From an uncultured Gemmatimonadales bacterium (lineage in GTDB: Bacteria; Gemmatimonadota; Gemmatimonadetes; Gemmatimonadales; GWC2-71-9), in the NCBI GenBank assembly GCA_963757525.1, contig CAVWRM010000001.1:3224884-3288883 (forward strand): a stretch of DNA of 64,000 bases, in the 5' to 3' direction. The position numbers were made by a program, and so were the translations under genes. The notes beneath the pieces were generated by a model. It made no database searches. It was not told where the DNA came from and saw only the letters and a program-made list of their open reading frames with translations. Positions 41,661 through 63,007 of this stretch are shown piece by piece (position 1 is the stretch's first letter; the number at the start of each line of letters is the position of its first letter).

Positions 41661-41676
41661 ATCAACCTTTTTTGAT
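41661..41676 (+). promoter_or_regulatory. Second ATCAA-N6-TTGAT site between arsR and arsM
   Basis: ATCAA (41661-65) CCTTTT TTGAT (41672-76). The half-sites and spacing are the same as in the arsR promoter palindrome. Confidence 0.45.
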
Positions 41677-41686
41677 GAGGGTCAGA

Positions 41687-42514
41687 ATGAGCAGCCAGGA
41701 TATCAAGACCATCGTGCGGGAGCGGTACGGCCAAGCGGCGCTCCGGGCCTCGAGCGGGGCCACATCCGGATGTTGTGGCGGATCGTGCGGCGCCGCGACC
41801 GACGACCCGATCACCTCGAATCTGTACACTCAGGCGGAGACCGCGCTCGTTCCGGCCGAGGCGGTGTTCGCCTCGCTCGGCTGCGGCAACCCGACGGCCC
41901 TCGCCGAGCTCCGCCCGGGCGAGGTTGTTCTCGACCTCGGCTCCGGCGGCGGTATCGACGTGCTCCTCTCGGCGCGGCGCGTCGGACCCACCGGCAAGGC
42001 GTACGGCCTCGACATGACCGACGAGATGCTTGCCCTCGCGCGCGACAATCAGCGGAAGGCCGGACTCGCGAATGTCGAGTTTCTGAAGGGCGACATCGAA
42101 GCGATCCCGCTCCCGGACGCTTCCGTGGACGTGATCATCTCCAACTGCGTGATCAATCTCTCCGCCGACAAGCGAAAGGTGATTGCCGAGGCCTTCCGGG
42201 TGCTTGCACCAGGCGGCCGGCTCGCCGTCTCCGACGTGGTGGTCCGCGGCCACGTTCCCGCCGAGGTCCGTTCCAGCATGGAGCTGTGGGTCGGCTGCAT
42301 CGCGGGCGCACTCGCCGAGGAGGAGTTCCGGGCGCTTCTCCGGGAGACAGGGTTCGACGACATCTCCATCGAGCCCACTCGCATCTACGAGTTGGACGAC
42401 GCCCGGGCATTCCTCTCCGCCTCGGGACTGGATAGCGAGGTACTGGCGCGGGAGGTCGGCGGCTGCGTCATGGGTGCGTTCGTTCGGGCGCGGAAACCCG
42501 GACCGGCTTCGTGA
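41687..42514 (+). CDS. arsM: Arsenite S-adenosylmethionine methyltransferase
   Basis: 'VRERYG', Cys cluster 'GCCGGSCG', 'LGCGNP', SAM motif '[12 protein letters not shown]', '[10 protein letters not shown]'. ATG 41687 with GAGGG upstream. Confidence 0.85.
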
Positions 42515-43488
42515 TCGTGCCGGGAAGGGCGCCAGGGAAGTTCACGATCCGCCAGGCGACGAGGGACGACTACGCGGCGGTCGAGCGCCTGCTCAACGCC
42601 GCCTCCCTGCCGGTCGAGGGACTGGACCCGACACTCGATGACTTCTTCGTGGCGGAACAGGCGGACCAGCAGGTGGTGGGAACCATCGGTCTGGAGCCGT
42701 ATGGCGAGGCAGCCCTCCTGCGGTCCGCCGCCGTCGCGCCGGCCGCGCAAGGCGTGGGCGTCGGCGAGGCACTGGTCAACCGGCTCTCGGATCATGCGCG
42801 GACGCGCGGGATCCGGGAGCTGTACCTCCTCACGACCACGGCGCTCGGCTACTTCACCCGATTCGGCTTCATGCGGATCGATCGCGCCGATGTGCCGCCG
42901 GCGGTTCGGGAGTCGGTCGAGTTCCGCGAGTCCTGTCCTGCTTCGGCGGCGGCGATGCGGAAGCCGTTGTCGTCCCCCCGGGTGCTCTTTCTCTGCACCG
43001 GGAACAGCGCGAGGAGCCGGATGGCGGAAACGATCCTGAATCGCAAGGCCGGGGGACGCTTCGTCGCGGAGAGCGCGGGATCCCGGCCGGCCGCGCGGGT
43101 GAATCCGCACGCCATCGCGGCCCTGGAACGCCACGGGTATTCGTGGACCGGGGGCCCGCCTCGGTCCGTGGATCGTGTACTGGGCGGCCAGTGGGACTTC
43201 GTGATCACGGTGTGCGACCGGGCCAAGGAATCATGTCCTGTTTTTCCCGGCCAGCCGGTGCAAGCGCACTGGGGCATGCCTGACCCGGCCGAGGTTGAGG
43301 GAACGGACCAGGAGATTCGCCGGGCGTTCGATGACGCCCTGATCGCGATCAGCCGCCGGCTCGATCTGTTTTTGGCCCTGCCCCTCGAAAAGCTGTCGGC
43401 AATGGCGCTGGCAAGCCGCGTCCAGGCCATCGGTCATCTCCCCACGTCGCCGGCTGAGGACGCAATCAGTCTGAATCACGGCGGGTGA
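42511..43488 (+). CDS. arsC: Fusion of a GNAT N-acetyltransferase (ArsN-like) and an LMW-PTP-type (thioredoxin-coupled) arsenate reductase
   Basis: GNAT 'VAPAAQGVGVGEAL' and 'GYFTRFGF'. ArsC 'LFLCTGNSARSRMAE' (CX5R-S) and 'VITVCDRAKESCPVFPG'. GTGA overlap with arsM. Confidence 0.8.
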   Translation: MIVPGRAPGKFTIRQATRDDYAAVERLLNAASLPVEGLDPTLDDFFVAEQADQQVVGTIGLEPYGEAALLRSAAVAPAAQGVGVGEALVNRLSDHARTRGIRELYLLTTTALGYFTRFGFMRIDRADVPPAVRESVEFRESCPASAAAMRKPLSSPRVLFLCTGNSARSRMAETILNRKAGGRFVAESAGSRPAARVNPHAIAALERHGYSWTGGPPRSVDRVLGGQWDFVITVCDRAKESCPVFPGQPVQAHWGMPDPAEVEGTDQEIRRAFDDALIAISRRLDLFLALPLEKLSAMALASRVQAIGHLPTSPAEDAISLNHGG

Positions 43489-49016: not shown

Positions 49017-49238
49017 GCCCGCGGTGCCAGTGGGGACCATCCGGCGCGCCGTTGCGGCACCGTTGGTCGGAATGACCCAACAACCCGACCCTGAAGGAAT
49101 CATTAAGTGACGGAGGGACAATCACTTCCTGGGATTGTCCCCAGGTAGGCCATGGCGCGGAACCTGCGGCAAGGGGCAAGGCTACCTATACTTCGCCCGC
49201 TGAGCTTTTGCACCACCGAACCCCAACGACGCGTATAC

Positions 49239-51385
49239 ATGACCCGCTCCCCCCGACTCGCCACTCGTCTCGGCACGATCCTTCTCGCCGTCGGCGCCCT
49301 CACCTGCGGCGGTGATGGCACCGACCCCAATCCTGCCGATCCGACGAAGCTTGCAGTGACCACCCAGCCGTCGAGCTCCGCGCAGAACGGACAGGCCCTT
49401 GCGGTGCAACCCGTGGTGCAGGTCCAGGACGCCAACGGTGAAGACGTAGCCGCGCCGAGCGGCACAACGATCACGGCATCGGTGACCGGCGGAGGCGCCA
49501 CGGTTCAGGGCACGGCCACCGTGACGCCCGATGCCACCGGCAAGGCGACGTTCACCGACCTGGCTCTCACCGGCGCCGGCGGCACGTATACGCTCCAGTT
49601 CAGCGGCAACGGACTTTCCGGCGCGACCTCGTCCAACATCGTGCTCGCGGGCGGGCCGCCGTCGACCATCACGGTCACCATTCAGCCCACCAGCGCACTC
49701 GACGAGGAAGTCTTCGACCCGTCACAACAGCCCGTGGTGACCGTGACCGACGCCGGCGGCAACCCCGCGGCCGACGTGTTGGTCACCGCGTCGATCGCGT
49801 CGGGCACCGGAACGCTGCAGGGCAGGGACACGGCCACCACGGACGCCTCCGGCGTCGCGCGGTTCACCGACCTCGGGATCGGCGGCGCCGGCTCGCAGAC
49901 GCTCGGCTTCAGCGGCGGCGGCGCCACCGGCACCTCCGCGCCGATCAACATCGCCACCCTCTCGGCGCAGGCGACGGCGGGCCAGTGGGACGCGCCGGTG
50001 GCGTGGGACATCGTGCCGCTGCACATGCACCTGCTGCCCACGGGCAAGATTCTCGCCTGGGGGCGGTTCGAGAATGGTACGATGATGATGGCCAATCCAC
50101 GCCTCTGGGATCCGGCGGCAGGACCGCCCACGACCGCCATAACCGTACCCGCGGATACCATGCTCTTCTGCGCCGGTCATGGGTTCATGGCCGATGGGAC
50201 ACTAATGGTGTCAGGGGGGCACAAACTGGACGATCGCGGGCTCGATGTGACCAATTTCTTCAACCCGGCAACCCAACAGTGGACGGCCGGGCCCAAGATG
50301 GCCAAAGGGCGCTGGTATCCCACCGTCACCGAGCTGCCCGATGGCCGGATGATCACTGTGGCGGGCAAGGACACGAGTAAGACCACGGTGCTCATTCCGG
50401 AGATCTGGGAGAATAACCATTGGGTTCAGCTCCCCGGTGCACCTCTCAGCTTCCCTACTATCCGCGTGACTTCGTCTCACCCGACGGGCGCATCTTCATG
50501 GCAGGCGAGCGCACGATGTCACGCTGGCTGAGCGTTGACGCCATGGGGGCGGGCGGGCGGGGAACTTGGGTCAACGGACCCGCACACATCTGGCCGTTCA
50601 ACCGCGACTATGGGTCGGCGGTCATGTACGAGGCGGGGAAGATCCTGTATGTCGGTGGAGGCGGCGACCTGACCTGGGACACCCCGGATCCGAAGAACGG
50701 GACGCCCACCGCAACGGCAGAGAAGATCGATCTCACGCAGGTGTCGCCGACATGGGAAAGCGCTGGATCGTTACCGACGCCGCGGCGGCACCTCAACGCC
50801 ACGGTGCTCCCCGACGGCAAAGTGCTTGTGACCGGCGGCGTCAGCGGGGCCGGCTTCAACAACATCGGCACGGCTCAACACGCCGCGGAGATCTGGGACC
50901 CTGCCACCAATAACTGGACCGGTCTCGCAAGCAATGCGGTGAACCGAGGGTATCACTCGGTTTCGCTCCTCCTCCCCGACGCCACAGTGCTGCACGGCGC
51001 CAGCGGAAATGCGAACATTCCCGGGACGTCTACCCCGTACCCCGACGAGGAGAGTCACGAGATCTACCATCCGCCCTACCTCTTCAAGGGTGCCCGGCCG
51101 ACGATCACGAACGTCGCCTCCCCCGTGAGCTACGGCGGCGATTTCACCGTGACGACACCCAACGCCGCCCAGATCACGACGGTGCGTATCACCCGGCTGG
51201 GCTCGGTGACCCACGCGTTCGACCAGAACGGCCGCACGATGAGGCTATCCTTCACGGCCGGGGCCGGCAGCATCAGCGTCACCGCGCCGGCCAACGCCAA
51301 CGCCGCGCCGCCGGGCGATTACCTGCTCTTCGTGCTCAATCGGAATGGGGTGCCGTCGGCGGCAAAGGTGGTGCGGATTCAGTAG
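49239..51385 (+). pseudogene. Glyoxal oxidase / galactose-oxidase-like lipoprotein (Ig-like repeats + Kelch-type propeller + DUF1929-like C-terminus) interrupted by a 1-nt frame change near 50440-50456
   Basis: ORF 49152..50531 ends '...NNHWVQLPGAPLS' plus junk. ORF 50420..51385 is junk plus 'LPYYPRDFVSPDGRIFMAGE...'. The two halves form one continuous propeller. Signal peptide 'LGTILLAVGALTCGG'. Confidence 0.75.
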
Positions 51386-52980
51386 GCCACGTCGAGCATG
51401 ATCGTGGGCTCGCTGGCGGAGGGCGAAGGCTTGCCCTCCGCCAGGTTGTTTTCCCACCATGCGCGCGCGTGGCCTGCAGTCCACGGATCGCCCGCGTCCA
51501 CCCGCACCAGCGCCTCCGCCAGCTCGCCGGCAGACGCCGGCCGGCCTGCAGGCTCCTTGGCCAGACAACGAAGAATGATCTCGTCGAGCGCGCGGGGGAT
51601 GGCGAGTCCCGACCTGTCCGACGGCGGTACCGGCCGGCCCTGCAGGTGCTGGAGGATCATCCTGAGCGCGTTGTCCGCCTCGAAGACCAGCGTGCCCGTG
51701 AGCAGGAAGTAACCGACGCACCCCAGCGAATAGAGATCCACCCGCGCGTCGATCGCTTCGCCCGACGCCATCTCCGGTGGCATGTATGCCGGGGTCCCGG
51801 TCGTGGCCTGGGGAGCGGTGAGCAGGGTCTGCCGGCCCGCCTCCTGATCCCGCTTGGCGAGCCCGAAATCCAGCACCTTGATGAAGTCGTAATCGAGACC
51901 GAGCCGGCAAAGATGCAGGTTGGCCGGCTTGATGTCCCGGTGTATCAAACCGGACGCGTGGGCTTCGGCGAGGGACGCACACGCCTGCAGGAGCAGGTGG
52001 ACCACGCGAGCCGGTGGCTGCGGCCCGAAGCGACGGACCAGCGTCTCGAGGTCCATCCCGTCCAGCAGCTCCATCACGATGTAGAAGCGCCCGTCACGCG
52101 TCACGCCGAAGTCGTAGAGCTGGATGCTGTGGGGCGAGCGCAGGCTCGCGGCCGCCTGGGCCTCCCGCCGGAACCTCGCCACCGCGGTGGCGCTGTCCTC
52201 GTCGTCCCGACGCGGACGGATCAGTTTGATGGCGGCGGGGCGCGCCAGCAGGCGGTGGTGCGCCCGCCACACCTCGCCCATTCCGCCCTCGCCGATCCGG
52301 TCCGCCAGCCGGTAGCTGCCCATCTCTCTCGCGCGGCTCACCTGTCGCCCCATCCGCAGGATGATCTTCGACGGAAGGACCGCCAGCAGCGCACAGACGT
52401 AGTTGGGCGTGTAGGCCCAGACGAGGAGTGGGAGACTCGGGAGCTCCACGCCGCGGAGATGCGCCACGATGAGACCGACCGGGTCCATACTGGCCGCGAG
52501 GAGCGATGCGATGAGCGTCTTCCTGGGCGGTGCCGGCACGATCAGCGGCTGAATCAGGATCAGCACGCACAGCCACGAGAGCCGTCCGCCCAGCACCGCC
52601 GGATTCCACTGGTTCACGAGCCCGACTCCGAAGGCGAGTACGACTTCGTAGGCCAGCCCGACGTTGACGAGCTTGTGACCCTGGCTCCGGCAGGTGGGCG
52701 CCCACCGGTAGAGGGCCACCGACAGGAGGATGAACACCACCGCGAAGACGTCGGCGAGCGGCGGCCACGCCAGCACCGCGTCCCGGGGCAGATCGAGCAG
52801 CGGGCGGATCAGGTGGTTCATCACCAGGCCGATGGTCCACAGCCCGATCCAGACGGCCGCCGCGATGCGGAGCCGCTGGACGATCTCGCCGACCAGCTCG
52901 TCGGGCAGCGAGGCGTCGGCTCCCCCGGTGGTCGAGGGCGTCGTGTTGACCTGGGGCTCCACTCGTGAGTGGCTGGGCAT
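51379..52980 (-). CDS. Ser/Thr protein kinase with an N-terminal six-helix membrane domain
   Basis: Six hydrophobic segments in the first ~215 aa. Then 'IGEGGMGEVWRA', 'AIKLI', 'HRDIKPANLHL', 'DFGLAK', 'GTPAYMPPE'. Its 3' end overlaps the upstream gene by 7 nt. Confidence 0.85.
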   Translation of the reverse strand: MPSHSRVEPQVNTTPSTTGGADASLPDELVGEIVQRLRIAAAVWIGLWTIGLVMNHLIRPLLDLPRDAVLAWPPLADVFAVVFILLSVALYRWAPTCRSQGHKLVNVGLAYEVVLAFGVGLVNQWNPAVLGGRLSWLCVLILIQPLIVPAPPRKTLIASLLAASMDPVGLIVAHLRGVELPSLPLLVWAYTPNYVCALLAVLPSKIILRMGRQVSRAREMGSYRLADRIGEGGMGEVWRAHHRLLARPAAIKLIRPRRDDEDSATAVARFRREAQAAASLRSPHSIQLYDFGVTRDGRFYIVMELLDGMDLETLVRRFGPQPPARVVHLLLQACASLAEAHASGLIHRDIKPANLHLCRLGLDYDFIKVLDFGLAKRDQEAGRQTLLTAPQATTGTPAYMPPEMASGEAIDARVDLYSLGCVGYFLLTGTLVFEADNALRMILQHLQGRPVPPSDRSGLAIPRALDEIILRCLAKEPAGRPASAGELAEALVRVDAGDPWTAGHARAWWENNLAEGKPSPSASEPTIMLDVAY

Positions 52981-53110: not shown

Positions 53111-54154
53111 GTGCCGCAGCCCGCCAGGGGCAGCTTCGCCAGGCTCAGCGAAAATCCCGTCACCCGTGTCGTGGCCTACTACGTCCTGCTGGCTGCGGGC
53201 ACGGCCCTTCTCTGGCAGATCTTTCCCGGTCTCCACACCGTCTTCTCCGCCGAGCGGCTGGATGCGCTGACCGCCGGGAAGGACCACCTCGGCAATGATC
53301 CGCTCTTCGAGTCGCTGAGCGGCACTGCCGGGCAGCATCTGCCGCCGCCCGTCGCCCTGGCCGTCACCACGGCACTCTGCATGACCGGCGCCTTCCTGCT
53401 GATGATCCCGGTCGCGTGGGTGTACATCATGACCCGCCAGAAGAAGGGCTACCGCCAGTCGGTGGTGCAGACCCTCGTCATCCTGCCGATCGTCGTTGCG
53501 GGCGTCGTCCTGCTGGTCAAGAACAGCGTCGCGCTGGCGTTCAGCCTCGGCGGCATCGTCGCCGCGGTGAGCTTCCGCAACACGCTGCGCGATACGAAAG
53601 ACGCCGTCTGCATCTTCCTTGCGACCGCCGTGGGCCTCGCGGCGGGTGTGCAGGTGATGTCGGCCGCCGCGGTCATGTCGCTGCTCTTCAACGTCGTCAT
53701 CCTGATCTTCTGGTATACCGACTTCGGCCGGGCGCCGGCCCATCTCGAGGGGCCGGCCGCGGCCCGCCGGCTGGCGCGGTCGCGGGCCAACGCCAATCGG
53801 AGCGGGGCCTTCGTCTCGATGCTCGATCGGGAGATCCTGCGGTCCATGACGCCGGAACAACTCCAGGCGATCGTGGCCCGGGCCCAGAAACGCGGCTCGG
53901 GCAAGGTGCCCAAGCCGCTCGAGACCTCGGTGAGGATCCGCACGTCGCAGGCCGAATCCGTGCAGCGGGCGGTCGAGGCGCTGCTCACCGAGCAGGTGAA
54001 GGAATGGAAGCACACCCACACCTCGCGCGACGGTGGGGGCATCGCCGTGCTGGAGTATCGGGTGCGCCTCAAGAAGAGCCTGCCGGGTGACGCACTGCTC
54101 CAGGTGATACGCAACCGGCTGGGCAACCAGATCGCCGATGCCGAAGTCAAGTAA
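53111..54154 (+). CDS. DUF4956-like membrane protein with a C-terminal soluble domain
   Basis: 'VWVYIMTRQKKGYRQSVVQTLVILPIVVAGVVLLVKNSVALAFSLGGIVAAVSFRNTLRDTKDAVCIFLATAVGLAAG' matches my recollection of the DUF4956 core. GTG 53111 with GAGGGG 6 nt upstream. The start is uncertain. Confidence 0.65.
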   Translation: MPQPARGSFARLSENPVTRVVAYYVLLAAGTALLWQIFPGLHTVFSAERLDALTAGKDHLGNDPLFESLSGTAGQHLPPPVALAVTTALCMTGAFLLMIPVAWVYIMTRQKKGYRQSVVQTLVILPIVVAGVVLLVKNSVALAFSLGGIVAAVSFRNTLRDTKDAVCIFLATAVGLAAGVQVMSAAAVMSLLFNVVILIFWYTDFGRAPAHLEGPAAARRLARSRANANRSGAFVSMLDREILRSMTPEQLQAIVARAQKRGSGKVPKPLETSVRIRTSQAESVQRAVEALLTEQVKEWKHTHTSRDGGGIAVLEYRVRLKKSLPGDALLQVIRNRLGNQIADAEVK

Positions 54155-54166
54155 AGCCCGGCCGGC

Positions 54167-56602
54167 GTGAGCGACCTCCTTCCCGAGCTCCAACGCCTCC
54201 TCAAGGACCGATACGCGGTCGAGCGCGAGGTGGGCCGAGGCGGCATGGCGCAGGTATTTCTCGCGCGGGACAAGAAATACGGGAGACGGGTCGCCATCAA
54301 GATCATGGACCCGGACATCTCCAGCGCCGTCGGGCCCGAGCGCTTTCTCCGCGAAGTCCAGATCACCGCCCAGCTCCAGCACACCAACATCGTCCCTCTC
54401 CTCGACTCGGGCGAAGCCGAAGGCCTCCTGTACGCCGTGATGCCGTACATCGAAGGCGAGTCGCTCCGCGACCGGATGATGTGCTGCGGCAGGGTGTCCG
54501 TCGCCGAGGCCGCCTCGATCGCCTGCGAGGTAGCCGACGCCCTCGAGTACGCCCATCGCCACGGGGTGGTGCACCGCGACGTCAAGCCCGAGAACATCCT
54601 GCTCTCGAATGGTCACGCCGTCGTGGCGGACTTCGGCGTCGCCCGCGCCGTGGAGCTGTCGGGCGGAGCGACGCTGACCGGCATCGGGCTGCCCATCGGC
54701 ACGGTGGCCTACATGAGCCCGGAACAGGCGACGTCCGCAGCGGGCGTCGATGGCCGCAGCGACATCTACAGCCTCGGATGCGTACTCTACGAGATGCTGG
54801 CGGGGCGGATGGCCTTCAGCGGTCCGACCCTCAAGAGCGTGCTCACCCAGCAGCTCACCAGCGACCCGCCGCTGGAGCATCTGGAGGCCGCCGAGGTGCC
54901 GCCCGGTCTCATCACGACGGTGCGCCGAAGCATGGAGAAGGCGCCGGAGGATCGCTTCCAGACCGCCGGCGCCCTTGCTGAGGCGTTACGCGAGACGCTC
55001 GGCGCCCTTCCGCGACTCTCGACCCCGGTCCCGGCAGTAACTCCGGAGTCGGTCCGATCCGGCGAGCCCGAGCGGGGATCAGCCGGGCGCTGGTTGATCC
55101 CCGCCGCGCTGCTCGCCGCGATCGCGCTCGTCTTCCTCGTATGGCATCCCTTCGAGTCCCATCGCCCGACCGTCCCCAAGCCGCCCACGGCGAGCCGCTA
55201 CGCGGCCTCGGTGGCGGTGCTCCCCTTCGACAACCTGAGCGGTGACTCCTCCAACGAGTACTTCAGCGAGGGCATCACCGAAGAGATCATCGGCCAGCTC
55301 GCGCAGGTCGAGGGTCTCAAGGTGATCTCGCGAACCTCGGTCATGGCTCTCAAGGGCAGTTCGCTCACGCTGCCGCAGATCGGCGAGACCCTGGGCGTCC
55401 AGCACGTGGTCGAGGGGGCGGTCCGAAGACAGGGAAACCGGGTCCGGGTGTCGGCCGAGCTGATCGAGGCCAGGTCCGAGGAGCACCTCTGGGCCGGCAT
55501 CTTCGAGGGCGACCTGTCCGACCGGTTCCGGGTGCAGGAGGAGATCGCCCGCAAGGTGACGGAAAAGCTGGCCAGCGGGCTGACCGGCATGCGAACGATG
55601 GCCGAGGGCGCGATGGCCACGCAAAGCGCGGCGTTCGACGCGGTATTGCGCGGCCGGTACATCATGAATCGCCGGGATCCCCAGGCGCTCGAGTCGGCGA
55701 TCGGGCTGTTCAACGAAGCGGTGAAGCTCGACAGCGCCTACGCTATGGGATACGCCGGGATGAGCTCGGCATACTCGACGTGGGTGTTCTACGGCTACCG
55801 AGGGAATTTCAGCCAGTATCAGGCGGCCGCCCGGGCGAAATCGCTGGCGCTTCGTGCCGTGGCGCTCGATTCCGGCCTCGCGGAGGCGCATCACGCCCTG
55901 GCCGACGCCCTGGTGGTGAACGAGGCTCCGCTGGACTCCGCGCTCGCGGAGCTGCGGCGGGCGCTCCAGCTCAAGCCGAACGACGCAGCGATCCGGATGT
56001 CGGCCGCGTTCTCGCTCGCGGCGAGTCACCGATACAACGGCGCGATCCGCCAGGCCCAGGCCGCGGTCGGGTTGGACCCGCTCGCCACCGGGCTGCGCCA
56101 CGGTCTCATCGTGCTGGCCCTCGGGGGGCGGGAATACAACACCGCCCTCGAGGAGGCCCGGCGAGTGCAGGCGCTGGCGCCGGCCGATCCGGTGACGGCC
56201 GTGCTCCAGAGCTACGCGCTGCTCTTGAGCGGCAACGCGAGCGGCTGCCTGGCGCTGGACCTGGGCCCCTGGCTCGCGGCCCGGTCCATGTGTCTGTACC
56301 GCGCCGGACGCCGCGAGGAGGCGCGCGAGCTCATCGACTCGCTCGAGCAGCAGCTTCGTGCCGGCAAGTTCACCAATGCCCACCAGTATTCGGATCTCGC
56401 CGCCTACTTCGCCTGGACCGGTGACGTGGACCGCTCCCTCGAATGGTTCGAGCGCTCGGTGCGGGTGACACCGGTGATCGCCTACTGGCAGATCGACTCG
56501 GGACTCTTCGACCGCATCAGGCAGGACCCGAAGTTCATCCAGGGACTGGCGCGAATCTCCGAGGACGCCCGCACCCGCGCCGCGGCCGCCAGCCCCCGAT
56601 GA
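54167..56602 (+). CDS. Ser/Thr protein kinase with TM, periplasmic TolB-N-like module and TPR repeats
   Basis: 'VGRGGMAQVFLA', 'VAIKIM', 'HRDVKPENILL', 'DFGVARA', 'YMSPEQ'. TM 'WLIPAALLAAIALVFLVW'. 'VAVLPFDNLSGDSSNEYFSEGITEEII'. TPR-like tail. Confidence 0.88.
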   Translation: MSDLLPELQRLLKDRYAVEREVGRGGMAQVFLARDKKYGRRVAIKIMDPDISSAVGPERFLREVQITAQLQHTNIVPLLDSGEAEGLLYAVMPYIEGESLRDRMMCCGRVSVAEAASIACEVADALEYAHRHGVVHRDVKPENILLSNGHAVVADFGVARAVELSGGATLTGIGLPIGTVAYMSPEQATSAAGVDGRSDIYSLGCVLYEMLAGRMAFSGPTLKSVLTQQLTSDPPLEHLEAAEVPPGLITTVRRSMEKAPEDRFQTAGALAEALRETLGALPRLSTPVPAVTPESVRSGEPERGSAGRWLIPAALLAAIALVFLVWHPFESHRPTVPKPPTASRYAASVAVLPFDNLSGDSSNEYFSEGITEEIIGQLAQVEGLKVISRTSVMALKGSSLTLPQIGETLGVQHVVEGAVRRQGNRVRVSAELIEARSEEHLWAGIFEGDLSDRFRVQEEIARKVTEKLASGLTGMRTMAEGAMATQSAAFDAVLRGRYIMNRRDPQALESAIGLFNEAVKLDSAYAMGYAGMSSAYSTWVFYGYRGNFSQYQAAARAKSLALRAVALDSGLAEAHHALADALVVNEAPLDSALAELRRALQLKPNDAAIRMSAAFSLAASHRYNGAIRQAQAAVGLDPLATGLRHGLIVLALGGREYNTALEEARRVQALAPADPVTAVLQSYALLLSGNASGCLALDLGPWLAARSMCLYRAGRREEARELIDSLEQQLRAGKFTNAHQYSDLAAYFAWTGDVDRSLEWFERSVRVTPVIAYWQIDSGLFDRIRQDPKFIQGLARISEDARTRAAAASPR

Positions 56603-59600
56603 CCGGCCCGCCCGATCGCCAGCTCAAGTGGGATGTTCCCACTCCGGAGCGTCTTCGGGATCTGGCCTCGGGTCCGCTCCCGCTTCGCCTCCCGTCCACT
56701 CCCGTCACGCGCGCTCTGTACCGCGACATCTACTTCGACACGGCCGATGGCGCGCTGTCGCGCCGGGGCGTGGTGTGCCGCTGGCGGATCGGGGCGGATG
56801 ATCGTCGCGCGCTCAAGGTGCGCTTCTCCGCAGGCGACGCCGTCGTCTCGGAGACACCGGAGACCGAAGCGTCCGCCGCTCTCGCGGGCGCGAGCGAGGC
56901 CGCCCGGCGACTCCGCGGCGTGGTGAACCAGGCCGACCTCCAGCCGCTGGTGGAGCTCGAGGTCGAGCGGCTGACCCGGGAGTCGAAATCGCCATGGCCG
57001 TGGCGCGGGCAGTTCACCTTCTTCTACGACGCGGTCTCGGTGCGTCGCGCCGGCATCGCCCGCACCTTCCAGGAAATGAAGGTCCGCCGCCTTCGTGGCG
57101 GCTCACCGACGCTCGAAGCTATCGGCGCCGCGATGCCCGAGGTCCGCCCCATTCTCGAGGGCAAGCTGGCTCGGGCCCAGCGGCTGTCGGCGGGACTCGA
57201 GCGGGAGGCGCTCGCCCGGTCGCTCGCCTCGGGCCGGACCACCGCGCTCCTCGTGCTCGACCGTGGCCGGGTAGCGCTCCGGCGCGGGGAGGGCCGGCAC
57301 CGACTCCCGGTCGGCGCGGGGCAGGGGGAGGCGGCATGCCGGCATCTGCTGCAGCAGACGCTCGGCAGCTCCGTGGGCGACCTCGCGTTCCTCGGCACCG
57401 TGGCCGGGATCGGCGCGGTCCACCTGCTCGACGTCTGGCTCGCGCGCCGGGTGCGCACCGATCAGGAGGCCTCGGCCGACATCGACTGGCTCCCGCTGGA
57501 CGACGTGATCGCCACCGCCGGCGGGCCGGGCCTCGGCGATCCCGAGACACTTACGGCGATCGCCTTCGCGCTGCGCTCGGGTGTCAGTCCCGAGCCAGCG
57601 ACGACGGCGCCGGTGATCCAACCAGCTCCAGCCTCCGGTGGGCCGGTCGCCGTCGACGATTCCGAGGCGACCCCGCTCCTCGATCCCGACATCAGTGTCG
57701 TCGAGTTCAACGCCCGGGTGCTCGCGCTCGCGGAAGACGCCCGGATACCGATCGTCGAACGCCTCGGCTTTCTGTCGATCGTGAGCTCGAATGTCGACGA
57801 GTTCTTCATGGTGAACGTCGGCGCCTTGAAGCAGGAAGCGCAGGACGGCCGGCTCGACGCGGTGGGCCTCCGGCTCCGCGGGCTCCTGGAGCGGCAGACG
57901 CGCACGGCGGAGACCTGTCTCGAGAAGCTCCGCTCTTACGGCGTGACGATTCGTTCATGGGACGGCCTGAGCGACATGGCCCGCGCGCGGATGATCGAGC
58001 GCTTCCAGCGCGAGATCTATCCTCTCGTCACGCCCCGGGCGATCACGATGAGCCCGGGATTTCCCGTTCCGCTCCTGCCCCATCTCACGCTCTGCATGGC
58101 GGTGTCCCTGATGGACGCGGACGAGGGGTCGACCCACTTCGCCTATCTGAGGATGCCCGAGCGCCTGCCGCGCTTTCTCCCCACCGGCGAAGGCGGCGAG
58201 GTCATCCCCATCGAGGAGGTGGTGCGCGCCAACGTCGCGGCGTTCTACCCCGGCCGCACCATCGACGGCGCCTTCCTCTTCCGGCTCACCCGCGCGGCGG
58301 AGATCGAACTCGACGATCGCGAGGCGGGCGACCTGCTGCAAGCCGTGCGCGAGGCCGTGGGGGGCCGGGCGTCGAACGCGGTGGTCCGGCTCGAGGTGGA
58401 GCGGCCGATGCCGCGAGTGATCCGCGACCGGATCCGCTGGGAGCTCCGGTTCGAGCGCGACGCCGAGGGCACCGGCGTTTCCGACGCCGACGTGTACGAG
58501 GTGGGCGGCCTGCTCGATCTGCGGGCCTTGCGCGAGCTCGGCGCGGCCGCAGTTCCCGCGGGCGGCGGCCGGTTTCCTGCCCTGGCCGCGCGGGATCCTT
58601 TCGCGCAGGACACGGACCTCTGGACCCGTCTCGATGCCGGCGACGTGCTCCTGTTTCATCCGTACGAGGACTACTCGGCGAGCATCGTGCGGTTCTTCTC
58701 CGAGGCGGCCGAGGATCCGCAGGTCGCCTCGATCCGACTCACGCTCTACCGTGTGGGCGAGCAGTCGCCGATCGTGGATGCGCTGCTTCGAGCCCGCGCG
58801 GCGGGCAAGGAAGTGATCCTGTTCGTCGAGCTGAAGGCGCGGTTCGACGAGGCGCGGAACGTGGCCTGGGTGCAGCGCCTCGAGGACGCGGGCGCCACGG
58901 TCGTGTACGGCGTAGTGGGACTCAAGAATCACGCGAAGGTCGGGCTCGTGCTGCGGCGCACCGGCACGGCCGGCGAGCTCCGGCGCTACGTGCACATCGC
59001 CACGGGCAACTACAACGTCGCGACCGCGCGCCAGTACACCGACCTCGGCCTCCTCTCCGCCGACCAGCGACTGGGCAATGACGTGCACGAGCTCTTCAAC
59101 GAGCTGACCGGGTCGAGCCAGCCCCCGGGGGGGAGGCACGATCGGATCGTCGTCGCCCCGACGCATCTCCTGCCGCACGTGCTGGCGGCGATCGAGAACG
59201 AGATCGGCCACGCCCGCGCGGGCCGCGAGGCGAGAATCCGGGCCAAGCTCAACGGGCTTGCTGATACCGAGGTGATCCGCGCACTCTATCGCGCCTCCGA
59301 GGCGGGCGTGGACATCCAGCTGGTGGTGCGCGGACTCTGCACGCTCAGGCCCGGACTTCCGGGCATCTCCAGCCGCATCCGGGTGGTAAGCCTCCTCGGC
59401 CGCCTCCTCGAGCACGGCCGGATCTACCACTTCGCCAACGGCGGCGACGATCGCTATTACATCGGCTCGGCCGACTGGCGTCCCCGCAACCTCCGCCGCC
59501 GGGTCGAGGTGATCGTCTCGATTACGGACCCCGACCACCGCGCCCGGCTGAACAACATTCTCGAGGTGGAGCTCGCCGACCCCAACGCCTGGGAGCTTCA

Positions 59601-59700
59601 GCCGGACGGCCGGTACCGTCAGCGGGAGGGCGCCGGCACCGAGCCGGGAAGCCAGGAACGGTTCGCTTCAGAAAGCACTTCCGATCCACAAGCGAAGTGA
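56599..59700 (+). CDS. ppk1: Polyphosphate kinase 1 with a ~360-aa N-terminal extension (CYTH/TTM-like domain + degenerate Nudix-like domain)
   Basis: PPK1 'VEFNARVLALAED..IPIVERLGFLSIVSSNVDEFFMV', 'GLKNHAKVGLV', 'ATGNYN', 'GSADWRPRNL'. Extension 'YRDIYFDTADGALSRRGVVCRWRI'. ATGA overlap with the kinase stop. Confidence 0.88.
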   Translation: MTGPPDRQLKWDVPTPERLRDLASGPLPLRLPSTPVTRALYRDIYFDTADGALSRRGVVCRWRIGADDRRALKVRFSAGDAVVSETPETEASAALAGASEAARRLRGVVNQADLQPLVELEVERLTRESKSPWPWRGQFTFFYDAVSVRRAGIARTFQEMKVRRLRGGSPTLEAIGAAMPEVRPILEGKLARAQRLSAGLEREALARSLASGRTTALLVLDRGRVALRRGEGRHRLPVGAGQGEAACRHLLQQTLGSSVGDLAFLGTVAGIGAVHLLDVWLARRVRTDQEASADIDWLPLDDVIATAGGPGLGDPETLTAIAFALRSGVSPEPATTAPVIQPAPASGGPVAVDDSEATPLLDPDISVVEFNARVLALAEDARIPIVERLGFLSIVSSNVDEFFMVNVGALKQEAQDGRLDAVGLRLRGLLERQTRTAETCLEKLRSYGVTIRSWDGLSDMARARMIERFQREIYPLVTPRAITMSPGFPVPLLPHLTLCMAVSLMDADEGSTHFAYLRMPERLPRFLPTGEGGEVIPIEEVVRANVAAFYPGRTIDGAFLFRLTRAAEIELDDREAGDLLQAVREAVGGRASNAVVRLEVERPMPRVIRDRIRWELRFERDAEGTGVSDADVYEVGGLLDLRALRELGAAAVPAGGGRFPALAARDPFAQDTDLWTRLDAGDVLLFHPYEDYSASIVRFFSEAAEDPQVASIRLTLYRVGEQSPIVDALLRARAAGKEVILFVELKARFDEARNVAWVQRLEDAGATVVYGVVGLKNHAKVGLVLRRTGTAGELRRYVHIATGNYNVATARQYTDLGLLSADQRLGNDVHELFNELTGSSQPPGGRHDRIVVAPTHLLPHVLAAIENEIGHARAGREARIRAKLNGLADTEVIRALYRASEAGVDIQLVVRGLCTLRPGLPGISSRIRVVSLLGRLLEHGRIYHFANGGDDRYYIGSADWRPRNLRRRVEVIVSITDPDHRARLNNILEVELADPNAWELQPDGRYRQREGAGTEPGSQERFASESTSDPQAK

Positions 59701-59784
59701 TAGAAGGGCTTGAATTTAGGAGCTAACGCGGCATCTTTCGCCGAAGTCCGGCCGCAATGGAGCGTCCGGTTTGCCAAGCCGCGT

Positions 59785-61062
59785 ATGATCAGAGTCACAG
59801 GAGTCGAGGCGGGGTCGATCGCGGAGGAGCTGGGGCTCCGGGCGGGAGCGGAGCTGCTCTCGGTCGACGGGCGCGAGCTGGAGGACTTTCTCGACTGGGA
59901 GTTCGCCACCGCCGAGGAGGCCTTCCTGCTGCACGTGCGGATGCCGGGAGGTGAGGAGATCGAGTTCGACATCGAGCGGCCGCTGGGCGAGCCGATGGGC
60001 GTGGCGCTCGAGCCCGTGCGCATCCGACGCTGCGCCAACCGCTGCGACTTCTGCTTCGTGGACGGCCTGCCCGACGGGCTACGCGACGTGCTGTACATCC
60101 GCGACGACGACTACCGGCTCTCCTTCCGCTACGGCAACTTCGCCACGCTCACCAATCTCAAGCCCCGCGACATCCGCCGCATCAAGGAATACCGGCTTTC
60201 GCCGCTCTACGTCTCCGTGCACGCCACCGATACCACGGTTCGACGGTACCTGCTCCGGAATCCATCGGCGCCGGATCTCATTCCCCAGCTTCGCGAATTC
60301 GCCGACGCCGGCATCGAGTTTCACACCCAGGTCGTGATGTCCCCCGGCGTGAACGACGGTGCGGTGCTGCGCCAGACGCTCGCCGAGCTGTTCGCCTTCG
60401 GACCCGCGATCCTCGGGTGCTCCGTGGTGCCGGTGGGACTCACCGAGCACAGCAAGCATCACCTCGTGCGCGAGCCGACGGCTGGCGAATGCCGGGCCGC
60501 CATCGCGCTGATCGACGCCCAGGCGGCGGTCGCGCGGCGGGAGCGGGGCCTCACCTGGGCGTTCGGCGCGGACGAGCTGTATCTGCGCGCCGGCGTCGAG
60601 CTGCCACCGGCGGAGATCTACGACGGGTTCGATCAGGTCGAGAACGGCGTCGGCGCGGTGCGGTGGCTGCAGCGGCGGATCGCGGACCAGCGTGGCGAGC
60701 TCGAGCGGCTGGCGGGGCGACGAGTCGGCGTCGTGACGGGCACGGCGATGGCGCCGCTCATGCCGATGGTGCTGGAGCCGCTCGCGGCCGTGACCGGCGC
60801 GCGCTTCGAGCTCATTCCGGTGGAGAACTCGCTGTTCGGTGCGTCAGTGACGACCGCCGGATTGCTGCCCGGCGCCGCCGTGCGGGAGGCGCTCGTGGCC
60901 CGGGACGATCTCGATCTGGCGCTCCTGCCCGGCGAGTGTCTCAACGACGACGGGCTCTTCATCGACAGCATGAGCTTCGACGCGCTCGCCGGCGCACTTT
61001 CGTTCGAGGTCCGCGCATCGAAGGACTTCGTCGACGCCCTCTCCGCGCCGGCGGCCGCGTGA
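59785..61062 (+). CDS. PDZ + DUF512 (radical-SAM-like) protein
   Basis: PDZ 'VEAGSIAEELGLRAGAELLSVDG'. 'CANRCDFCFVDGLP...LYIRDDDYRLSFRYGNFATLTNL'. Located upstream of der. TTG 59710 is an alternative start. Confidence 0.75.
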   Translation: MIRVTGVEAGSIAEELGLRAGAELLSVDGRELEDFLDWEFATAEEAFLLHVRMPGGEEIEFDIERPLGEPMGVALEPVRIRRCANRCDFCFVDGLPDGLRDVLYIRDDDYRLSFRYGNFATLTNLKPRDIRRIKEYRLSPLYVSVHATDTTVRRYLLRNPSAPDLIPQLREFADAGIEFHTQVVMSPGVNDGAVLRQTLAELFAFGPAILGCSVVPVGLTEHSKHHLVREPTAGECRAAIALIDAQAAVARRERGLTWAFGADELYLRAGVELPPAEIYDGFDQVENGVGAVRWLQRRIADQRGELERLAGRRVGVVTGTAMAPLMPMVLEPLAAVTGARFELIPVENSLFGASVTTAGLLPGAAVREALVARDDLDLALLPGECLNDDGLFIDSMSFDALAGALSFEVRASKDFVDALSAPAAA

Positions 61063-62381
61063 GCAAGCCGACCGTCGCAATCGTCGGCCGCCCCAACACC
61101 GGCAAGTCCACCCTCTTCAACCGGATTCTCGGCGGGCGCCGGGCCATCGTATCGGACCGTCCGGGCACCACCCGCGACCGCCACTTCGGCGAGGCGGAGT
61201 GGAATGGACGCCACTTCTGGGTGGTGGACACCGGCGGCCTCGTGCCGGAGTCGCACGACTCGATGGATCGCGCGATCCGCCAGCAGGTCGAGTTCGCCAT
61301 CGCCGAGGCGGACTTGATCCTCTTCGTAGTGGACGGCGACGAAGGCGTCAATCCGGTGGACCGGGCCATCGCCGACCGTTTGCGCCAGGCGCAGCGCCCC
61401 GTCGTCCTGGCGGTCAACAAGCTCGACGATCTCGAGCGGAGCACCGCCCAGTACGACTTCTACCAGCTCGGATTCGGCGACCCGTACGGCGTGAGCGCGG
61501 CAGTGGGGAAGGGCAGTGGCGACCTGCTGGACGTGATGGTGGATCGGCTGCCTCCCGCGGGAGAGGGAGATACCGAGGATGCGATCAACGTCGCGGTGGT
61601 GGGTCGGCCAAACGCCGGAAAGTCCTCGCTCGTGAATCGGCTGCTGGGGGAGGAGCGCCACGTGGTGGCGCCCGAGGCCGGGACGACGCGCGATGCGGTC
61701 GACTCACCATTGCGCTACAGTGGGAAGCTCCTCAAGTTCATTGATACCGCAGGGTTACGACGGCGCGCTAAAGTAGAAGATGACCTCGAATTCTACTCCA
61801 CCTTACGGACCGAGCGGGCCATCGAGCGCGCCACCGTGTGCGTGCTCGTGGTGGATGCGGTCATCGGCCTCCACAACCAGGACCTCCGCATCGCCACGGA
61901 GGCGTGGGACCAGGGGTGCGGGCTGATCATCGTAGTGAACAAGTGGGACCTGATCGAAGAGAAGGATGCCAACACCGCGCACCGCGGCCAGGAGGAGCTG
62001 ATCGCGCGCGCGCCCTTCCTGCGCTACGTCCCCTTCGTGTATGCCTCCGCCATCACGGGCCAGCGGGTACGGAAGATTCTCGATCTCGTTCTGGAGGTGG
62101 CCGACGGCCGGGGACAACGCATTCCCACCGCGGAAGTGAACAAGGTGCTCACCGACCTGCTGGAGCGCACCGCGCCTCCCCAGAAGCCGGGTGAGGAGGT
62201 CAAGCTCCTCTACGCGTCGCAGATCGGCACCGCGCCCCCGACGTTCGCGATCGTGAGCAACCGACCGGACGACGTGCCCGAGTCGTACCAGCGCTATCTG
62301 GCGCACGGGTTCCGCTCGGTGTGGCCCTTCACCGGCTCACCGCTGCGGCTGCGTTTCACGCGCCGGGGGTCGCGCCGGTGA
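61059..62381 (+). CDS. der: Ribosome-associated GTPase Der (EngA)
   Basis: Two G domains ('GRPNTGKSTLFN', '[12 protein letters not shown]'; 'DTGG', 'DTAG'; 'NKLD', 'NKWD') plus a KH-like C-terminus. GTGA overlap with the upstream gene. Confidence 0.92.
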   Translation: MSKPTVAIVGRPNTGKSTLFNRILGGRRAIVSDRPGTTRDRHFGEAEWNGRHFWVVDTGGLVPESHDSMDRAIRQQVEFAIAEADLILFVVDGDEGVNPVDRAIADRLRQAQRPVVLAVNKLDDLERSTAQYDFYQLGFGDPYGVSAAVGKGSGDLLDVMVDRLPPAGEGDTEDAINVAVVGRPNAGKSSLVNRLLGEERHVVAPEAGTTRDAVDSPLRYSGKLLKFIDTAGLRRRAKVEDDLEFYSTLRTERAIERATVCVLVVDAVIGLHNQDLRIATEAWDQGCGLIIVVNKWDLIEEKDANTAHRGQEELIARAPFLRYVPFVYASAITGQRVRKILDLVLEVADGRGQRIPTAEVNKVLTDLLERTAPPQKPGEEVKLLYASQIGTAPPTFAIVSNRPDDVPESYQRYLAHGFRSVWPFTGSPLRLRFTRRGSRR

Positions 62382-63007
62382 GCGGCTCGATGATCCCCTG
62401 GCTGCTCGCCTCCTACCTGCTTGGCGCCGTGCCCACGAGCTTCATCACGGCGCGCCTGTTCCGCGGCATCGATCTGCGCCAGCACGGCAGCAAGAATCTC
62501 GGCGCCACCAACCTGTACCGCGTCCTGGGGTGGAAGTTCGCGATTCCCGTCGCGCTGTTCGACGCGGCCAAGGGACTCGTGCCCGTGCTCGTCTTCGCGC
62601 CGAGGGCATCCGCTTCGCAGTTGTTCGGGCTCGTCTGCGGCATGATGGCGGTGCTGGGCCACGTTTATTCGGTGTTCGTGCGCTTCCGGGGCGGAAAGGG
62701 CGTCGCGACGGCGGCCGGCGTGATGCTCGCGATGGCGCCGCTGGCGCTCGGCATCTCGTTCGCGGTGTGGGTCGTCGTGGTGGCGCTGAGCGGCTACGTC
62801 TCGCTCGGCAGCATCATCTCCGCGGCCCTGTTCCCCGTGGCGGTGCAACTGCTCGATCCGCCCGATCAGCCGGCCATCCTCTGGCTCGACGTGGCCGTGG
62901 CGCTCGCGATCGTCTGGCTCCATCGCGCCAATATCGGACGGCTGCTGAAAGGCACCGAGAACCGCTTCGGCCGCCGGGCCGCGCCGACGCCACGAGGGCA
63001 GCCGTGA
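62378..63007 (+). CDS. plsY: Glycerol-3-phosphate acyltransferase PlsY
   Basis: 'SYLLGAVPTSFI', 'HGSKNLGATN', 'GHVYSVFVRFRGGKGVATAAG', 'HRANIGRLLKGTE'. GTGA overlap with der. ATG 62390 is an alternative start. Confidence 0.88.
   Translation: MSGSMIPWLLASYLLGAVPTSFITARLFRGIDLRQHGSKNLGATNLYRVLGWKFAIPVALFDAAKGLVPVLVFAPRASASQLFGLVCGMMAVLGHVYSVFVRFRGGKGVATAAGVMLAMAPLALGISFAVWVVVVALSGYVSLGSIISAALFPVAVQLLDPPDQPAILWLDVAVALAIVWLHRANIGRLLKGTENRFGRRAAPTPRGQP

Follow-up and report, generated by a model that had tools for sequence, protein, structure and literature searches.

The DUF4956-kinase-PPK1 locus

We analyzed a 64,000-nt stretch of DNA (~68% G+C, hereafter the window) from an uncultured soil bacterium of the Gemmatimonadales (GenBank assembly GCA_963757525.1, contig CAVWRM010000001.1, positions 3,224,884 to 3,288,883), in which three consecutive genes of the forward strand encode a DUF4956 membrane protein, a receptor serine/threonine (Ser/Thr) kinase of the Hanks type, and a PPK1-type polyphosphate kinase that carries a 360-residue N-terminal extension (Table 1). 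A first reading of this sequence, referred to below as the original prediction, had described the three genes as tightly packed, with a 12-nt gap behind the first and an ATGA stop/start overlap between the second and the third, and had proposed that they form a regulated module for the synthesis or translocation of polyphosphate (polyP). Both junctions were found exactly as described, and the interpretation is partly supported. The arrangement is more than a product of chance, since 21 species-level genomes show the same order with the same spacing and the DUF4956 gene adjoins the extended PPK1 gene in 64 of the 76 evaluable loci of the survey presented below.

A complete PPK1 behind a tunnel domain and a Nudix fold

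The core of the third protein is a PPK1 by every model applied, as had been anticipated: all four PPK1 domains of Pfam pass (69.6, 119.9, 210.4, and 193.8 bits), TIGR03705 scores 624.9 bits against a cutoff of 465.85, and the protein can be aligned to the crystallized enzymes 2o8r and 1xdo with an E value of ~1e-87. Both catalytic histidine motifs are present, GLKNHAK and LLEHGRI aligning with GLKVHAK and YLEHSRI of 2o8r. Judged from these motifs, the enzyme looks active, and ATP-dependent polyP synthesis is its predicted reaction. In public records, such fusion proteins are named either "polyphosphate kinase" or "CYTH domain-containing protein".

The extension was modeled with AlphaFold2 (AF2) using nine homologues (residues 1-360; predicted local distance difference test score, pLDDT, 83.3; predicted template modeling score, pTM, 0.71), and disorder was confined to residues 333-360. 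When this model was compared with the PDB using Foldseek, residues 8-205 were matched as a triphosphate-tunnel (TTM) beta-barrel. The best match was Escherichia coli YgiF with bound triphosphate (5a60, E 6.4e-9), followed by further TTM proteins and thiamine triphosphatases; 5a60, 2gfg, and 7nsf lie at E values between 6e-9 and 3e-7. A profile of 13 sequences of the extension family also matched YgiF by sequence, colinearly and with an E value of 3.9e-4. The Pfam CYTH model PF01928 itself fails on the window protein (15.3 bits vs. a threshold of 23.2) but is passed by a relative, P0042, with 41.2 bits. The VTC and NUDIX models (PF09359 and PF00293), which the original prediction had put forward alongside the CYTH model, gave no match to the proteins of the module at E ≤ 0.1. 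Assignment of the extension to the VTC family was rejected, hhalign of the CYTH profile against a VTC protein of Paenibacillus having returned a non-significant E value of 0.071 over 20 columns. The tunnel domain is a CYTH-type TTM and not a VTC-type one.

Conservation within the tunnel was computed across 82 sequences. Residues R42, D43, Y45, D47, T48, R61, and R124 are invariant, and about ten further positions, mostly arginines, are near-invariant, among them R56, R63, R103, R104, R106, E121, R127, and D144 (≥85% of the sequences). An E-x-E-x-E strand (E119/E121/E123) is present as well. The ExExK signature was not found: the first strand reads Q-L-K-W-D in the window, and the family consensus is E/Q-x-R/K-x-D/E. 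From this pattern of conservation, the tunnel looks functional but atypical.

Residues 212-330 adopt a Nudix fold, with ADP-ribose pyrophosphatases as structural matches (1v8u, 1v8y, and 2gb5; root-mean-square deviation, rmsd, 3.3-3.8 Å over ~130 columns). The box of the window protein, GQGEAACRHLLQQTLG, retains G241, G243, E244, A246, and R248, and its REUXEE element reads R-H-L-L-Q-Q, so that the pattern GX5EX7REUXEEXGU with its catalytic glutamates is not present. The catalytic columns vary within the family, being occupied by H/R and R/Q/A instead of E. An active Nudix hydrolase was rejected because the box is devoid of these glutamates and the columns are variable, and we conclude from the residues of the box that the fold is probably no canonical hydrolase. 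Hence, the expected architecture of a TTM domain and a Nudix-like domain ahead of a complete PPK1 stands by model, structural match, and the YgiF profile hit, but the Nudix part stands as a fold without its catalytic residues. The linker that joins the extension to the core varies in sequence among relatives, and a search for a conserved phospho-acceptor motif within it found none.

The DUF4956 membrane protein

The first gene encodes a protein of 347 amino acids (aa) that is 100% identical to the database gene call P0158, located on a contig of 3.73 Mb. Its earlier assignment to DUF4956 survived the profile search, although by a narrow pass (PF16316, 32.1 bits vs. a gathering threshold of 30.6). 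The proteins of its relatives score 36.9-77 bits with the same model, and hhalign of the family alignment against the VTC-adjacent DUF4956 protein of Paenibacillus backed the homology with 96.9% probability and an E value of 1.3e-10.

Hydropathy and positive-inside counts predict six transmembrane (TM) segments, with the N- and C-termini both cytoplasmic. A cytoplasmic loop, FRNTLRDTKDA, is invariant in the family, which also has invariant polar and charged positions. The protein ends in a ferredoxin/ACT-like domain of beta-alpha-beta-beta-alpha-beta topology in the AF2 model, and the matches found by Foldseek for the whole model fall on this domain alone (generic alpha/beta-sandwich proteins, E ~1e-3). 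It is an addition carried by the DUF4956 proteins of Gemmatimonadota. The domain is missing from the 226-aa Paenibacillus protein, from the ~225-aa protein of Hymenobacter, and from the single-chain fusion described below.

One Joint Genome Institute (JGI) protein name and a match of the Nonomuraea DUF4956 protein had prompted us to consider a kinship with MgtC/YhiD. This candidate was rejected, as hhalign against E. coli YhiD was empty and PF02308 (MgtC/SapB/YhiD) gave no match on the window DUF4956 protein. The Nonomuraea protein (L088:4539-5666) does match the Pfam MgtC model below threshold (18.8 bits, E 0.002), over almost the full length of the profile.

DUF4956 and TTM-PPK1 genes are paired throughout the phylum

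To survey the family, we scanned 1.84 billion representative proteins with HMMER and obtained 412 members of the extension family at E ≤ 1e-3, many of them as long as the fusion (1010-1080 aa). A look-up of the clusters for cultured carriers returned metagenomic members only. A scan of one genome per species then yielded 79 loci, nearly all from metagenome-assembled genomes (MAGs) of Gemmatimonadales or Gemmatimonadaceae, on which thirteen query segments were placed by tblastn together with a hidden Markov model (HMM) search for DUF4956. PPK1 follows CYTH in all 72 species-level loci where this could be evaluated, and a DUF4956 gene precedes them on the same strand in 64/76. The Nudix-like domain is found in 52 of the 79 loci and is missing in the other 27, being absent in Gemmatimonadaceae.

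The genes that flank the DUF4956/CYTH-PPK1 pair differ among clades. The window's type, with DUF4956, a kinase with a TPR sensor (kinase-TPR), and the fusion in this order, occurs in 21 loci, hereafter called window-like. In seven loci, plus one cut by a contig end, the kinase-TPR gene follows DUF4956 and the fusion; in two it is divergent from the fusion; and in three a short kinase stands between DUF4956 and the fusion. A further 23 loci have, one after the other, DUF4956, a gene that we call X390, and CYTH-PPK1, and elsewhere DUF4956 lies directly beside the fusion with gaps of 8-79 nt. Conservation of the neighborhood, which the original prediction had asked about, is therefore phylum-wide for DUF4956 with the fused PPK1 but confined to 21 loci for the full three-gene order.

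Two further gene arrangements tie DUF4956 to the tunnel domain. In one locus (L006:2453-6406, protein P0028), a single open reading frame (ORF) of 1317 aa joins DUF4956, CYTH, Nudix-like, and PPK1 domains in frame and without a stop; it is preceded by X390 and by a homologue of the window's six-TM kinase. Such a fusion requires a cytoplasmic DUF4956 C-terminus, in agreement with the predicted topology. In two independent assemblies, the end of the DUF4956 gene overlaps with a CYTH-Nudix gene that stands alone, encodes 374 aa, and has no PPK1 part (L002:461-1585 and L003:599-1723), and a convergent uxaC gene follows. DUF4956 therefore pairs with the TTM module and not with PPK1 as such.

Outside the phylum, we inspected three DUF4956 genes from a plasmid collection. 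Paenibacillus has a VTC gene (183.8 bits), DUF4956, and a Cthe_2159 protein in this order, and Nonomuraea has VTC (151.9 bits), DUF4956, and CotH (105 bits), its DUF4956 being homologous to that of the window by tblastn. The Hymenobacter gene has no recognizable TTM neighbor; the gene upstream of it was considered as a relative of X390 or CYTH and is related to neither. CotH, a polyphosphate polymerase gene, and DUF4956 have been listed as accessory genes of Gram-positive pel exopolysaccharide loci (PMC7112168). The earlier statement that DUF4956 genes sit beside VTC-domain genes elsewhere was thus correct. With adjacency across the phylum, an in-frame fusion, and a stand-alone TTM-Nudix partner, DUF4956 is a genuine TTM partner, and its link to TTM-PPK1 is strong.

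Some of the assemblies call for care. Frameshifts are frequent in the PPK1 fusion and neighboring genes of the long-read MAG contigs L001, L004, L005, L021, L068, and L069, and public sets contain artefactual "proteins" that derive from frameshifts (P0001-P0004, P0006, P0012, P0046, and P0156), some of which mimic kinase-TPR/CYTH fusions by read-through. Six short proteins from the first homology search were considered as stand-alone forms, a status rejected for at least five, which are fragments of frameshifted genes in noisy long-read assemblies; the exception is P0005, a genuine stand-alone gene.

Kinases and X390 alternate beside the pair

The kinase coupled to PPK1 in the window matches Pkinase (166.8 bits) and TPR_2 (28.7 bits) and has the VAIK, HRDVKPEN, and DFG motifs. 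The divergently transcribed kinase matches Pkinase with 139.5 bits and has VAIK, HRD, and DFG motifs, and the six TM segments attributed to it earlier are there as six hydrophobic stretches. Of the 21 window-like loci, 18 match this TM domain at the corresponding position, and the remaining three break off there or close by because their contig ends upstream; L049 and L054 match it too. In L006, a homologue with 46% identity is found upstream in the same orientation. A third Hanks kinase is encoded at positions 53-2383 of the window on the forward strand (776-aa ORF, kinase domain at ~41-931), and three Hanks kinases within 64 kb mark a kinase-rich genome.

Across the survey, a Hanks kinase adjoins the module in 33 of the 76 loci, between the genes in 21, downstream in seven, divergent in two, and as a short form in three. 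The position between the DUF4956 and PPK1 genes is specific to the window's clade, the kinase being downstream or divergent elsewhere, and in L038 a different kinase of 958 aa lies directly upstream of the module. Matches to the sensor part of the kinase (KTmid and KTtpr) were found only beside the module, and bystander kinases in the flanks of the loci gave none. The membrane kinase that had been predicted to be translationally coupled to PPK1 shares the ATGA overlap with it, and a Hanks kinase recurs in 33/76 loci, but the kinase lies outside the conserved core and takes the middle position in one clade only. We regard the kinase as a recurrent accessory rather than a core part, and its link to the module as moderate and specific to some lineages.

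X390 takes the place of the kinase in 29 species-level loci, where it adjoins the CYTH-PPK1 gene. It is a conserved, secreted protein of ~370-390 aa with a signal peptide, four invariant cysteines, and invariant HN and DFD motifs, and it had no match among Pfam, NCBIfam, and PDB sequence profiles. A likeness of its HN...DFD pattern to CotH kinases led us to consider X390 as a CotH-like kinase, a candidate that was not retained: profile searches were empty, and hhalign against the Nonomuraea CotH aligned the HN...DFD motif with the catalytic region at a non-significant E value of 0.23 and 0.3% probability, which leaves the idea unproven. Kinase and X390 were never found in the same locus (0 observed vs. 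12.6 expected, Fisher p = 1.6e-10, uncorrected for phylogeny), and they may therefore fill one shared functional slot. This alternation points to a further regulatory or processing layer.

Genomic context

Downstream of PPK1, a DUF512 gene, der, and plsY continue in the same direction. This tail is found in all of the window-like loci and in these alone; it is housekeeping context that lies outside the conserved module. A terminator scan found no terminator-like site between PPK1 and DUF512, and the combined promoter and terminator scan found no sigma-70-like promoter and no terminator within or just past the module, a result that does not set the limits of the operon.

Two further features of the window were recorded. 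A galactose/glyoxal-oxidase-like gene at 49152-51385 (+) is apparently split into two overlapping ORFs in different frames, the first (49152-50531) with CarboxypepD_reg, Big_1, and Glyoxal_oxid_N domains and the second (50420-51385) with Kelch and GO-like_E_set domains, which could reflect a frameshift, a pseudogene, or a sequencing error. At 41672-43488 (+), the end of a gene for an S-adenosylmethionine (SAM) methyltransferase overlaps by 4 nt with the next gene, whose product joins a GNAT acetyltransferase and a low-molecular-weight phosphatase/ArsC-like domain in one chain.

Table 1 Features of the module and its surroundings (window positions unless a locus is named).
Feature	Position	Strand	Evidence or remark
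Divergent Hanks kinase gene	51379-52980	-	130 nt upstream of the DUF4956 gene
Divergent kinase, N-terminal six-TM domain	52372-52872	-	six hydrophobic segments, ahead of the kinase domain
DUF4956 gene	53111-54154	+	GTG start, TAA stop at 54152-54154, GAGGGGG-like ribosome-binding site 5' of the start
DUF4956 C-terminal cytoplasmic ferredoxin/ACT-like domain, residues 270-347	53918-54151	+	AF2, pLDDT >90
Intergenic gap of 12 nt, DUF4956 gene/kinase gene	54155-54166		sequence reading; spacing retained in window-like loci
Receptor Ser/Thr kinase gene, 811 aa	54167-56602	+	GTG start at 54167
Coupled kinase, cytoplasmic kinase domain	54212-54964	+	Pkinase
Coupled kinase, single TM segment, residues 304-331	55076-55159	+	hydropathy
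Coupled kinase, predicted periplasmic FlgO-like and TPR region, ~480 aa	55160-56599	+	topology prediction
ATGA, kinase stop overlapping PPK1 start	56599-56602	+	sequence reading; overlap retained in window-like loci
PPK1 gene with 360-aa extension	56599-59700	+	stop codon 59698-59700
CYTH/TTM domain, residues 8-205	56620-57213	+	AF2, Foldseek, family profile
Nudix-fold domain with degenerate box, residues 212-330	57232-57588	+	Foldseek
Pro/Ala/Ser/Thr-rich disordered linker, residues 331-360	57589-57678	+	pLDDT 32-41
Complete PPK1 (N, middle, C1, and C2 domains) and stop codon	57679-59700	+	Pfam, TIGR03705
DUF512 radical-SAM-like gene	59710-61062	+	Pfam; co-directional, downstream of PPK1
Der/EngA gene	~61062-62381	+	Pfam; co-directional, after DUF512
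PlsY gene	62321-63007	+	Pfam; co-directional, after der
X390 examples	L082:6771-7943, L006:1404-2465, L046:2867-4063		outside the window

A membrane-docked polyP synthase as the favored reading

We propose, with a probability of about 0.5, that the module is a membrane-docked polyP synthase that is under kinase control in the window's clade. The conserved charged loop and the C-terminal domain of DUF4956, both predicted to be cytoplasmic, would bind the N-terminal CYTH/TTM domain of PPK1, thereby keeping the enzyme on the inner side of the cytoplasmic membrane. The arginine-lined tunnel would grip a phosphate chain, be it a primer of short length or the growing polymer by its free end, while the HKD-type PPK1 core would lengthen polyP from ATP and the degenerate Nudix fold could bind a ligand or serve in packing, in either case without catalysis. 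Two kinases would tune the output in the window's clade, the translationally coupled receptor kinase with its periplasmic TPR sensor and the divergent six-TM kinase, both of which may phosphorylate a cytoplasmic part of the complex. The polymer would stay in the cytoplasm and nucleate a granule at the membrane. The analysis shows the identities of the domains, a full set of PPK1 catalytic motifs, the conserved gene pairing with its fusion, and the predicted topologies; physical docking, binding of the chain by the tunnel, regulation by the kinases, and the fate of the polymer are points that we infer.

Several observations weigh against this proposal. Docking and ligand binding are predictions from genes and models, and the TM part of DUF4956 is poorly modeled by AF2 (pLDDT ~55-65, pTM 0.31). 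The chemistry of the tunnel is uncertain because ExExK is not retained and E159 is variable. In 12 evaluable loci, no DUF4956 was found within 3.5 kb upstream, and the kinase is not essential to the core, as more than half of the loci lack it. Extracytoplasmic partners are also frequent, namely X390 with its signal peptide and the CotH, Cthe_2159, and Pel loci, and docking at the cytoplasmic face leaves these unexplained.

These same partners are what an alternative of VTC-like synthesis and translocation, the reading of the original prediction, would account for, in which an oligomer of DUF4956 forms a conduit, the tunnel threads PPK1-made polyP to the periplasm or the surface, and the kinases or X390 act outside. 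In yeast, the VTC complex combines the TTM polymerase Vtc4 with a transmembrane channel, and the likeness of a tunnel and membrane-protein pair to this complex underlies the translocation hypothesis. The pairing of DUF4956 with a TTM mirrors it, the extracytoplasmic neighbors (X390 in 29 loci, the periplasmic TPR region of the kinase, and the CotH, Cthe_2159, and Pel loci) fit it, and the six TM segments of DUF4956, together with its invariant polar and charged residues, would suit a conduit. However, PF09359 gave no match, and Foldseek found no channel among the matches of the DUF4956 model, the VTC TM domain of yeast included, a test that is weak because the TM part of the model is poor and of low confidence. 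PPK1 products are, moreover, normally cytoplasmic granules, Gemmatimonas is reportedly an intracellular polyP accumulator, and we know of no bacterial polyP exporter. We hold translocation to be plausible but less likely than docking alone, and equally tentative is its fuller form, in which DUF4956 and TTM would be a PPK1-driven bacterial counterpart of VTC that exports new polyP, with a kinase (Hanks, CotH, or possibly X390) acting on or sensing the polymer or its protein targets.

A different doubt concerns the kinase part of the docked-synthase proposal, since a Hanks kinase may simply have been inserted between linked genes of kinase-rich genomes and have no part in polyP regulation. With three such kinases in the 64-kb window, a position between the genes in one clade of 21 species only, 43 of 76 loci without an adjacent kinase, and no conserved phospho-acceptor motif in the linker, coincidence deserves some weight. 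Yet the kinases beside the module belong to the same sensor-defined subfamily in three gene orders, and bystander kinases of the flanks do not match that sensor domain. The stop/start overlap is conserved in the window-like loci, the exclusion of X390 suggests one functional slot, and L006 again has a homologue of the six-TM kinase, though in another arrangement. An incidental kinase is therefore possible, although we find it rather unlikely.

Least probable, and in our view improbable, is a reading in which CYTH controls PPK1 allosterically as an enzyme or sensor in its own right (for example, by cleaving inorganic triphosphate, trimming the ends of polyP chains, or sensing nucleotide triphosphates), with DUF4956 merely an operon-mate that responds, for example, to phosphate or cations. 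The nearest solved relatives of the domain are indeed triphosphatases (YgiF, thiamine triphosphatase, and an archaeal TTM), the conservation of the acidic strand E119/E121/E123 and of D144 resembles that of metal-dependent TTMs, and CYTH is fused in YgiF to a polyP-binding CHAD domain (PMC10892726), but ExExK is replaced, and neither the in-frame DUF4956-CYTH-PPK1 fusion nor the DUF4956 genes beside a stand-alone CYTH-Nudix gene without PPK1 would be explained.

Significance

Because the tunnel partner is here joined to an enzyme of a type proven to make polyP, and in one genome also to DUF4956, the locus offers a functional clue to DUF4956; it is the first direct genomic argument that a DUF4956/TTM pair handles polyphosphate, and it gives a concrete candidate complex. 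If export were true, the module would be the first bacterial polyP translocase. Full-text literature searches returned no paper on a CYTH-PPK1 fusion, on the function of DUF4956, or on the control of PPK1 by Hanks kinases, in keeping with the earlier statement that no described bacterial system of this sort was known. Soils are rich in Gemmatimonadota, and the isolate on which the phylum was founded accumulates polyP, so a membrane-docked, signal-controlled PPK1 would bear on phosphorus storage in soils and in wastewater treatment.

Comparison with known systems

The Nudix-like domain shares its fold with Nudix hydrolases such as the ADP-ribose pyrophosphatase of Thermus thermophilus (1V8U, rmsd ~3.4 Å over 130 residues) but is devoid of the catalytic glutamates of REUXEE. 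For the tunnel, the closest known protein by structure and by profile is the CYTH-CHAD inorganic triphosphatase YgiF of E. coli (5A60), which likewise fuses CYTH to a polyP-related module; the window tunnel differs in having no ExExK, and its fusion partner is a polyP synthase and not the granule-binding CHAD. The resemblance to the yeast VTC complex is one of logic only, a polyP pathway in each case linking a tunnel domain with a membrane protein: by Pfam, the module has no VTC, SPX, or DUF202-type TM domain, and its polymerase is PPK1. Like the bacterial PPK1 enzymes of E. coli (1XDO) and Porphyromonas gingivalis (2O8R), the window protein has four domains, aligns end to end, and has both catalytic histidine motifs, but it differs from them by the 360-aa CYTH and Nudix-like extension that is kept beside DUF4956 throughout the phylum. 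The VTC/DUF4956/CotH cluster of Firmicutes and Actinobacteria has a homologous DUF4956 beside a protein of the TTM superfamily, often with a protein kinase as the third gene. Unlike in that cluster, the TTM of the window is of the CYTH type and fused to a classical PPK1, the kinase is of the Hanks type and not CotH, and DUF4956 is longer by one TM segment at its N-terminus and by a ferredoxin-like domain at its C-terminus.

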